A stretch of DNA of 32,000 nucleotides. Source: Synechocystis sp. PCC 6803 substr. PCC-P (GTDB taxonomy: Bacteria; Cyanobacteriota; Cyanobacteriia; Cyanobacteriales; Microcystaceae). The notes under the pieces are model-generated. The model did not search any database, was not told the origin of the DNA, and saw nothing but the letters and a program-made list of their open reading frames with translations. The DNA is taken from assembly GCF_000284455.1 (NCBI RefSeq), contig NC_017039.1, positions 60,001-92,000 of the forward strand, written 5' to 3'. The translations under genes and the position numbers were made by a program. Below, one piece after another: positions 10,016-10,935 of the stretch (positions are counted from its first letter, which is position 1; every line of letters starts with the position of its first letter).

Positions 10016-10393
10016 TCAGTTTTTTTCTAGAAATTCACCAAAGATCTGGGCTAGATACTGAACCTGTGTTTCTAGTTCTTTCACCCGGTCTTCCAGGGAT
10101 TGCGGTACGGGCAAACTCTTAATTTTAGGTAACAAACTATCCCATCCTTTTGCTTTTATGCCATAGGTCTTATTGTAAGCACTGTAAGTATTACGATAAT
10201 TGCCAAAATGTTTAATTAGAAATTCTTTGTTAACTTCCTTTTCTTGATCTAAAAATTGCGTAGTCTTTCGATTAACAATCTCTTGTAAACGCTCATAAAG
10301 AACAGCGGTAGCCCCCAGAAGCTTGGCGGTATTTTTAGTGTCTTGTTGATCTATTTCGTCAAGTTGGTCTAGTAATTTGCTAAATTTAGACAT
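10016..10393 (-). CDS. Hypothetical 125-aa helical protein (AT-rich ORF)
   Basis: Clean ORF with ATG at 10393. It is highly charged and helical and ends in a heptad-like segment, LEDRVKELETQVQYLAQIFGEFLEKN. I recognised no motif. G+C is 16 of 60 in line 10201-10260. Confidence 0.6.
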   Translation of the reverse strand: MSKFSKLLDQLDEIDQQDTKNTAKLLGATAVLYERLQEIVNRKTTQFLDQEKEVNKEFLIKHFGNYRNTYSAYNKTYGIKAKGWDSLLPKIKSLPVPQSLEDRVKELETQVQYLAQIFGEFLEKN

Positions 10394-10419
10394 AGTTTTT
10401 TAGATTTTTTTAAGAGGGT

Positions 10420-10935
10420 TTAACCTGAATCTCTACCAATGGAAGATGGTTTTGTGTCCATTTGAGGTTTATCAGGATCAGATTTGGGGGAAGTATCAAT
10501 TAATCCCATATCGGGCGGCTCATCGAAAAAGACTGAATTGACAAATGTCCACAATATATGAAATTTGCCAAACCAACTTCTGCTTTCTTTAACTTTGAAT
10601 GCCGCCAATTCTATTTCTGTTTGAATATTCTTTAATTCAGCCTTAATTTTATCTCTTTCAATGATCATTTTTTGTTTTTCTACAATAGAATTCTGCACTT
10701 CTATTTTTATTTGATCTAATTCTGCTTGCAGCCTATTTTTTTCCTCCTCTTGAATCTCTATTGAGCTATTTAGCTCGCTAATCTGACTTCTATAGCGACT
10801 ATTCCAACTCTGAAGACTTCCTCTTGACCTACGAATTGACTTGAGAGTACCTACCGCTATTTGCAAATTTTCATCATCTGGATAAATTTTTGCAAGATCA
10901 TAAAGTTCTTTAACTTTTTGTTCTATTCGATCCAT
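10420..10935 (-). CDS. Hypothetical 171-aa coiled-coil protein (AT-rich ORF)
   Basis: ATG at 10935 lies 8 nt after the UPF0182 stop and is preceded by GAGG (minus-strand TAG AGGTAATT ATG). It has a long heptad-like E/K/Q/I-rich core (EEEKNRLQAELDQIKIEVQNS...KAELKNIQTEIELAAFKV), then a short hydrophobic patch WFGKFHILWTFVNSVFF and a P/D/S/K-rich tail. G+C is 13 of 60 in line 10621-10680. Confidence 0.6.
   Translation of the reverse strand: MDRIEQKVKELYDLAKIYPDDENLQIAVGTLKSIRRSRGSLQSWNSRYRSQISELNSSIEIQEEEKNRLQAELDQIKIEVQNSIVEKQKMIIERDKIKAELKNIQTEIELAAFKVKESRSWFGKFHILWTFVNSVFFDEPPDMGLIDTSPKSDPDKPQMDTKPSSIGRDSG

Follow-up and report, generated by a model that had tools for sequence, protein, structure and literature searches.

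sll1061 and sll1062 of Synechocystis sp. PCC 6803 belong to a small family of obligately paired genes found at variable chromosomal sites and on plasmids

The 32,000-nucleotide (nt) stretch of the Synechocystis sp. PCC 6803 substr. PCC-P chromosome analyzed here (NC_017039.1, positions 60,001 to 92,000; referred to below as the window, whose numbering is used throughout) contains two short open reading frames (ORFs) on the minus strand, ORF1 of 171 amino acids (aa) at 10420-10935 and ORF2 of 125 aa at 10016-10393. Directly 5' of ORF1 lies a gene of 1,032 codons (10944-14042) whose product belongs to the UPF0182 family (Pfam, E = 2.5e-277). The genes were identified with single guide RNA (sgRNA) sequences labeled sll1060, sll1061, and sll1062 in the supplements of CRISPR interference (CRISPRi) papers on Synechocystis PCC 6803 (PMC10615215, PMC7125299). 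The sll1061 and sll1062 sgRNAs each have a unique match, on ORF1 and ORF2, respectively, and comparison by eye places the sll1060 sgRNA at the start of the UPF0182 gene; the convergent GDSL-lipase gene next to ORF2 is therefore slr1119. Both sll1061 and sll1062 are annotated as “unknown protein,” and a full-text search of approximately 8 million papers found no mention of sll1060, sll1061, or sll1062 in the running text of papers.

An earlier reading of this DNA made from the letters alone (the sequence-only reading) had described two ORFs of these lengths joined to the UPF0182 gene, and the ORF list places both exactly where it had put them. The junction is as it described: the minus strand reads TAG-AGGTAATT-ATG (10936-10946), so that 8 nt separate the sll1060 stop codon from the ORF1 start codon, and the GAGG Shine-Dalgarno sequence overlaps the stop codon. 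ORF1 and ORF2 are separated by an A-rich spacer of 26 nt (10394-10419, minus strand) with 23% G+C and no Shine-Dalgarno sequence. A hairpin at 10000-10017, between the convergent ORF2 and slr1119 genes, is terminator-like on the plus strand only; read on the minus strand, it comes right after the ORF2 stop codon and has no T-run.

The region from 10016 to 10935 contains 34.7% G+C compared to 48.8% for the window. It is the lowest-G+C 920-nt stretch in the 32 kb, approximately 3.6 standard deviations under the mean, and only 1% of 920-nt segments in the window have 36% G+C or less. G+C content at third codon positions is 0.26 in ORF1 and 0.32 in ORF2 versus 0.42 to 0.61 in the 22 other long ORFs of the window. 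The bias thus lies at synonymous positions, and amino acid composition alone does not explain it. The pair is therefore compositionally foreign, with atypical codon usage. The sequence-only reading had reported a sharp change in composition at the UPF0182 stop codon, and the three line counts that it gave (27/60, 13/60, and 16/60 G+C) were all exact. The pair is indeed the lowest point in the window, but the 3' two-thirds of the UPF0182 gene are already low, at 40 to 44%, so the change is less abrupt than was proposed. It had also taken a long stretch without HIP1 sites as a sign of foreign DNA. The window contains 31 HIP1 sites, or about 1 site per kb, which leave 32 gaps, and the gap over the pair (9801-12910, 3,109 nt) is only the second longest of these and within expectation at that density. 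The longest, at 3364-6800 (3,436 nt), runs across ordinary-looking genes, so such gaps are not diagnostic, and this line of evidence was dropped.

Both genes are real and under strong purifying selection. Among Synechocystis PCC 6803, PCC 7338, PCC 7339, and a related metagenome-assembled genome (MAG), the ratio of nonsynonymous to synonymous substitution rates (dN/dS) is 0.05 to 0.13 for ORF1 and 0.07 to 0.17 for ORF2. Synonymous divergence (dS) of the two genes in the same four genomes, 0.2 to 0.9, is like that of the last 900 nt of sll1060. The proposal that the pair is fast evolving is contradicted by these values, and within the genus the pair has been inherited vertically. Between PCC 7338 and PCC 7339 (loci L014 and L015, 5092-6920), ORF1 is identical and ORF2 has a dS of 0.013, while the last 900 nt of the UPF0182 gene have a dS of 0.32. 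The contrast points to a boundary of recombination close to the junction or at it.

The Sll1062 protein has been quantified by mass spectrometry (PMC9175036, Supplementary Table 1). Its level was unchanged in high CO2 and in mixotrophy and rose 2.5-fold in light-activated heterotrophic growth (log2 fold change of 1.30, p = 2.7e-5). All three genes, sll1060, sll1061, and sll1062, are present in an RNA-seq differential-expression table. No sigma-70-like site that could serve as the pair's own promoter was found on the coding strand. The 8-nt junction is nearly unchanged in three other Synechocystis genomes, with the GAGG core replaced by GGGA in one. The conserved Shine-Dalgarno junction, together with the absence of a coding-strand promoter, makes expression by read-through from sll1060 plausible, and we infer that the three genes are cotranscribed in Synechocystis. 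The proposed coupling to the UPF0182 gene is credible to this extent, but it is confined to that genus.

Other transcripts and a possible additional gene lie nearby. An annotated antisense RNA named slr1119-as is among the CRISPRi targets (PMC7125299). Like the pair, this RNA (9880-9911) is on the minus strand; its start, at 9911, is 105 nt past the end of ORF2, and it extends in antisense orientation into the GDSL-lipase gene. It could represent read-through of the sll1060-sll1061-sll1062 transcript or a unit in tandem with it. A second listed antisense RNA, sll1060-as, maps within the UPF0182 gene on the opposite strand (12137-12176, plus). The GTG annotated as the UPF0182 start is overlapped by an 88-aa hydrophobic ORF (13978-14244, minus). 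The other Synechocystis genomes have an 83-aa gene call at this site, and the UPF0182 start varies among them (1,009 versus 1,032 aa). The true sll1060 start may be further downstream.

The AlphaFold2 (AF2) model of ORF1, based on an alignment of 46 sequences (predicted local distance difference test [pLDDT] score of 83.8), consists of an N-terminal helix (residues 2 to 17), a coiled-coil helix (22 to 117), an aromatic hydrophobic helix (121 to 136), and a disordered Pro/Asp-rich tail. Residues 22 to 117 are predicted as one helix of approximately 95 residues with pLDDT scores of 93 to 98, and heptad analysis finds one continuous coiled-coil register over residues 22 to 118 (10582-10872, minus), with 71% hydrophobic residues at positions a and d. 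These elements agree with the coiled coil, the short hydrophobic patch (WFGKFHILWTFVNSVFF), and the P/D/S/K-rich tail that had been noted from sequence. The long helix opens with a near-invariant basic motif at residues 35 to 49 (RRSRGSLQSWNSRYR, 10789-10833, minus; consensus RRSRGSLQxWNxRYR). Across the alignment, R35, R36, S37, and Y48 are invariant, while R38, G39, L41, Q42, W44, N45, R47, and R49 are at least 90% conserved; the net charge of residues 22 to 52 is +5. The second conserved segment is the aromatic hydrophobic helix at residues 120 to 137 (SWFGKFHILWTFVNSVFF, GKF..W.F, 10525-10578, minus), in which G123, K124, and F136 are invariant and F125, W129, and F131 are at least 90% conserved. 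The suggestion that the protein is membrane associated fares poorly here. The maximum Kyte-Doolittle hydropathy over 19 residues is 0.64 in ORF1 and 0.35 to 1.38 across the 46 family members, well under the mean of about 1.6 over at least about 19 residues that was used as the criterion for a transmembrane segment. A transmembrane anchor, whether integral or at the tail, is ruled out by hydropathy.

ORF2 is predicted to be all helical (AF2, pLDDT of 74). Alignments define a conserved helical-hairpin motif at residues 1 to 37 (MSKFSKLLDQLDEIDQQDTKNTAKLLGATAVLYERLQ, 10283-10393, minus), which is predicted with low confidence. The best-predicted part of the model is a core of three short helices (56 to 63, 66 to 77, and 84 to 91; pLDDT of 79 to 92) within residues 55 to 92 (…FGNY.NTY.AYNKTYGIKAKGWDSLLP…, 10118-10231, minus). 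Invariant residues of ORF2 are G64, Y66, Y70, Y73, G78, I79, K80, G83, W84, L87, L88, and P89. The C terminus forms an amphipathic, zipper-like helix (residues 100 to 124, 10022-10096, minus) with conserved R103, L107, E108, V111, L114, and I117.

Neither protein resembles any known family. Searches of ORF1 and ORF2 against Pfam, PADLOC, PHROGs, and NCBIfam gave only subthreshold coiled-coil matches, as did searches with diverged family members and fusion proteins; in PADLOC-DB 2.0, the best matches were to coiled-coil segments of LmuB, BrxC, and PbeC (E of 0.002 to 0.08, 9 to 15 bits). Sequence and profile searches of the PDB returned nothing significant. Foldseek searches with the AF2 models of both proteins against the PDB, and of ORF2 also against BFVD, returned nothing under E = 1. 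No known toxin superfamily was found in either product by Pfam, NCBIfam, PADLOC, PHROGs, PDB sequence, or Foldseek searches, nor was an antitoxin-type DNA-binding domain (ribbon-helix-helix [RHH], helix-turn-helix [HTH], AbrB, or Phd) found in either protein. A PDB profile search aligned the bZIP proteins C/EBP-beta, Fos, and FosB to residues 34 to 84 of ORF1, but only at E values of 0.25 to 0.9. The sequence-only reading recognized no motif in either protein, and library, PDB, and fold searches likewise yielded only noise.

The family is small. A profile search recovered 54 homologous clusters for ORF1, and an exhaustive profile search of 1.84 billion representatives recovered only 24 relatives of ORF2. 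A pattern scan found 6 loci among 185,579 species genomes. All named source organisms are cyanobacteria, and each genome carries one copy of the pair. Hidden Markov models built from the ORF1 and ORF2 alignments were run over every fetched locus, and an ORF2 homolog was found directly downstream of an ORF1 homolog on the same strand at 13 of 13 loci, with gaps of 4 to 39 nt at loci other than the one described here. Homologs at only 31 to 45% identity are still full length and retain the motifs, and the pairing is kept even at approximately 25 to 30% identity; 9 nt upstream of one remote ORF2 relative (profile E = 8e-18) lies a diverged ORF1 homolog (E = 2e-23). Homologs of sll1061 and sll1062 therefore form a strictly linked, obligate pair.

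Two elaborations of the pair were seen. On Picosynechococcus plasmids, a 150-aa paralog of ORF1 is encoded just upstream of the pair, making a three-gene array (L005 8420-8872 and L006 7429-7878). It shares 32% identity with ORF1 over 139 residues and lacks the RRSRGS motif, and the hydrophobic helix is kept. Two relatives of ORF2, P0060 (227 aa) and P0068 (235 aa), are fused to an extra C-terminal domain of approximately 100 aa (…VPIY.IRRDIGD.V.R.QF..WM…), for which no match was found in Pfam, NCBIfam, or the PDB.

The surroundings of the pair vary, while the pair itself is constant. Adjacency to UPF0182 occurs only in the genus Synechocystis (PCC 6803, PCC 7338, PCC 7339, and one MAG), where the loci also share the convergent GDSL gene. 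No UPF0182 gene was found near the pair in Limnothrix, Picosynechococcus, Crocosphaera, Pannus, or any other non-Synechocystis locus, so the “weld” to UPF0182 posited by the sequence-only reading is a feature of one genus and not of the family. In all, nine independent contexts were distinguished, each different, and defense or addiction genes abut the pair in four of them, a count from a small sample taken without a background control. In a freshwater MAG clade (58 to 60% identity), the pair lies between a carotenoid-oxygenase-like gene, assigned by eye from its translation, and a type IIG restriction-modification gene of the MmeI type, the start of which overlaps the stop codon of ORF2 (PADLOC, E = 3e-249). 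In GCA_040398225, an 86-aa ORF lies to the left, and a 513-aa protein with a CAP12/Pycsar TIR domain, matched at 25.3 bits against a cutoff of 24.7, is encoded 27 nt downstream. At L024 and L025, PD-T4-4 genes A and B (E = 4e-141 and 8e-45) lie to the left, and small ORFs followed by truB lie to the right. The plasmids of Picosynechococcus PCC 7002 (pAQ6), 7003, and 7117 carry genes for a CHAT protein and a DUF1778-GNAT toxin-antitoxin pair to the left and C3a124 to the right, to which pAQ6 adds a WYL protein gene and cas1/cas2.

The metagenomic contigs L019 and L024 have the pair and everything downstream of it in common (truB, PAS/GAF, and urease alpha genes); on the left, L019 has a 101-aa ORF and lacks PD-T4-4. 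This combination of a common right flank with different left flanks indicates a variable defense hotspot. The remaining contexts include Limnothrix, with an M3 oligopeptidase gene on the left and either an FTR1 permease gene or CLIPPER/CHAT genes on the right, and an uncultured Synechococcus MAG, Crocosphaera, and Pannus, in which both flanks consist of housekeeping genes. At 11 of 14 loci, the A+T content of the pair exceeds that of the flanking DNA; the plasmids and one MAG are the exceptions. Discrete mobile-element borders were not found: the window contains no meaningful flanking repeats and no tRNA gene, and the pair's borders there are 8 nt and 30 nt from the neighboring genes. No operator-like sequence is common to the upstream regions across loci. 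The pair is thus placed at variable sites and is in some cases plasmid borne, often beside defense genes. Together with the atypical codon usage, the presence of homologs at unrelated chromosomal sites and on plasmids bears out the suggestion that the pair is a horizontally acquired accessory element.

Parts of ORF2 recur in other proteins. The N-terminal motif of approximately 35 aa occurs as two tandem copies in proteins of approximately 200 aa (P0067, P0075, P0080, and P0082) and, again in two copies, in a 625-aa protein (P0077) whose C terminus is a J domain (HPD). The gene for P0067 lies on an IMG/VR contig (L018, IMGVR_UViG_3300032248_000768), right after genes for a capsid protein, a head-tail connector, and a tail-completion protein; the 210-aa product encoded there, at 3546-4178, has two tandem motif copies and a Lys-rich tail. 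The gene for the J-domain protein (L029 4669-6546) lies beside a TnpB (OrfB_IS605) gene and an HTH_3 gene. In IMG/VR and the GenBank phages, no ORF1 relative and no full ORF2 relative was found, and the motif occurs on one contig only; with ORF1, ORF2, and P0067 as queries, tblastn against 50,697 GenBank phage genomes returned no match.

We propose that sll1061-sll1062, one member of a small family of obligately paired genes, is a horizontally mobile and self-standing accessory cassette. The genus Synechocystis would have received the pair through an ancestor, and its position 8 nt after sll1060 would be incidental; read-through from sll1060 probably supplies the transcript in this genus, with translation probably starting from the pair's own Shine-Dalgarno sequence. 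The genomic distribution indicates that the pair is probably not a partner of UPF0182. Because the genes are strictly linked and both products contain zipper elements, the two helical proteins are predicted to act together as one hetero-complex. ORF1 would provide a dimeric or oligomeric coiled-coil stalk, with the RRSRGSLQxWNxRYR motif as its conserved basic head and the aromatic hydrophobic helix toward its C terminus. The small adaptor would be ORF2, composed of an N-terminal helical hairpin, the three-helix core, and a C-terminal zipper that possibly docks onto the stalk. Genomic behavior and neighbors suggest that the cassette carries out a self-contained genetic-conflict function, either phage exclusion or addiction/stabilization. 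We hold this reading tentatively and rate it at somewhat less than an even chance, because neither protein has an effector domain and half of the contexts are ordinary. The phage-exclusion or addiction role that the sequence-only reading had listed among its possibilities thus draws some support from defense neighbors in other genomes but none from a match to an effector family.

Several observations weigh against a conflict function. No toxin, antitoxin, nuclease, NTPase, or effector match was obtained by sequence or fold in Pfam, PADLOC, PHROGs, NCBIfam, or the PDB, and effectors are seldom all-helical proteins without an enzymatic domain. In five of the nine contexts, the neighborhood is an ordinary housekeeping one, and a PADLOC scan of the 41 neighbors in these contexts gave only generic helicase and Ser/Thr-kinase matches. 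Cyanobacterial genomes are rich in defense and toxin-antitoxin genes, so the four contexts with such neighbors could be partly due to chance. With a single copy in each genome and a very restricted taxonomic range, the family is unlike typical toxin-antitoxin families, and no repeats, tRNA genes, or Rfam families flank the pair in the window, where they were searched for. Finally, Sll1062 is made in ordinary growth and responds to trophic mode, to which a physiological role would fit as well.

Two other explanations assign the pair a role within the cell. One is that it binds nucleic acid, with ORF1 as a bZIP-like clamp made of a basic region and a coiled coil and ORF2 as a small adaptor or coregulator, and that it regulates, organizes, or maintains DNA, for example in plasmid or island maintenance or in the control of neighboring genes. 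The +5 charge of residues 22 to 52 and the near-invariant RRSRGSLQxWNxRYR motif, which lead straight into a long acidic coiled coil, point in this direction, as do the bZIP proteins that were the sole PDB profile matches over the basic/coil junction. Carriage on large plasmids, the three contexts in which diverse defense genes lie directly downstream and codirectional, as with some island regulators, and the extra C-terminal domain of approximately 100 aa in two ORF2 relatives fit as well. However, the bZIP matches fall short of significance, ORF1 has S53 where an N-x7-R/K signature beginning at N45 would call for Arg or Lys, Pfam gave no HTH, RHH, KfrA_N, or Rho_N/SAP match, and Foldseek gave no DNA-binding fold. 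Strong purifying selection also persists where the pair stands alone with nothing nearby to regulate, and the upstream regions have no operator-like sequence in common. On balance, we consider a nucleic acid-binding role unlikely. Somewhat more doubtful is a lineage-specific structural or scaffold pair, a cytoskeletal or membrane-peripheral coiled coil whose task, shared with its partner, would be an ordinary cellular one and might involve the UPF0182 membrane protein, as the sequence-only reading proposed. The 95-residue coiled coil followed by an aromatic hydrophobic helix that could sit in the membrane interface would suit such a protein, as would the conservation of the sll1060 junction across four Synechocystis genomes, the presence of the protein in standard growth conditions, and the strong purifying selection. 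Against this stand the absence of UPF0182 linkage at every locus outside the genus, the patchy distribution seen in the pattern scan (6 loci among 185,579 species genomes), and a hydrophobic helix under the transmembrane thresholds. Plasmid carriage and foreign codon usage are likewise not expected for a core structural protein.

The tandem motif proteins raise the prospect that the pair is phage derived and acts on phage proteins. The ORF2 interaction motif would then serve as a decoy or interfere with assembly, or phage proteins would neutralize ORF1 through the motif. The motif is present twice each in P0067, P0075, P0080, and P0082 and in the J-domain protein P0077, and P0067 directly follows capsid, connector, and tail-completion genes on a viral contig. 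That contig is the only one of its kind, the tblastn search of GenBank phage genomes found no match to any of the three query proteins, ORF1 has no viral relative, and no prophage genes lie beside the pair in any locus, so we regard a phage origin as improbable. An equally speculative extension of the conflict reading is an anti-phage or anti-plasmid module of a hitherto unrecognized kind, made solely of coiled-coil and helical proteins. In this scheme, a phage component would be recognized through the phage-type hairpin of ORF2, and this recognition would be passed on to the ORF1 stalk, with its basic head and aromatic helix as the parts that act on DNA or the membrane; equivalently, the tandem motifs of phage proteins would titrate ORF1. 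The last alternative, that an AT-rich spacer or a decaying remnant happens to contain two reading frames without function, might be entertained given the lack of any family or fold match and the absence of Sll1061 from the listed rows of one proteome table. It is already refuted by the conservation data, with dN/dS values of 0.05 to 0.17 and homologs that keep full length and motifs down to 31 to 45% identity, and it also conflicts with the confident AF2 model for ORF1 and the quantification of the Sll1062 protein.

What is new here is the obligate pairing of two genes annotated only as “unknown protein,” their mobility and plasmid relatives, the association with defense hotspots, the conserved motifs, and the lack of a real link to UPF0182. 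As a candidate for a new module of conflict or maintenance, the pair can be tested in hosts that are genetically tractable; Synechocystis PCC 6803 is the standard model cyanobacterium. If the products instead form a structural or DNA-organizing complex, they would still constitute a new protein family without known fold relatives. The pair is uninformative on UPF0182 function, and a misleading lead is removed. The candidate is a clean one in a model organism, but nothing so far shows an unusual mechanism for it.

Among known systems, the cassette can be compared with type II toxin-antitoxin modules, which are likewise two small codirectional genes that lie close together (4 to 39 nt apart in the case of the pair) and are always inherited together. 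Locations on plasmids and at varying places in the chromosome, frequently within defense islands, and a foreign composition are further features in common. It differs in that neither product has similarity to toxin or antitoxin superfamilies, both are all helical with no enzymatic fold, the pair occurs once per genome and its named sources are all cyanobacteria, and no autoregulatory promoter or operator is visible, the Synechocystis pair having no separate upstream region. With small anti-phage systems such as PD-T4-4, it shares its neighborhoods, since it lies beside PD-T4-4 itself, a type IIG enzyme, a TIR effector, or a CRISPR/toxin-antitoxin island in four of nine contexts and one of its sites is a variable hotspot. 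In contrast to them, it has no match above coiled-coil noise to 5,027 PADLOC models and no recognizable sensor or effector domain, and half of its contexts are housekeeping. ORF1 recalls bZIP proteins and plasmid KfrA-type binders in that a conserved Arg-rich segment continues directly as a long coiled coil of the dimer type and some copies are plasmid borne, but it has no bZIP signature and no KfrA_N or HTH match, and it differs further in its additional helix at the N terminus, its hydrophobic helix toward the C terminus, and its disordered tail. It also resembles cyanobacterial coiled-coil-rich proteins and DivIVA/GpsB-like scaffolds in being short, with one dominant coiled coil and a conserved N-terminal head. 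No sequence or fold match connects it to these proteins, however, and unlike them it is patchy and mobile rather than core and always accompanied by its partner gene. The cassette therefore resembles known two-gene accessory modules but is built from proteins without known relatives.

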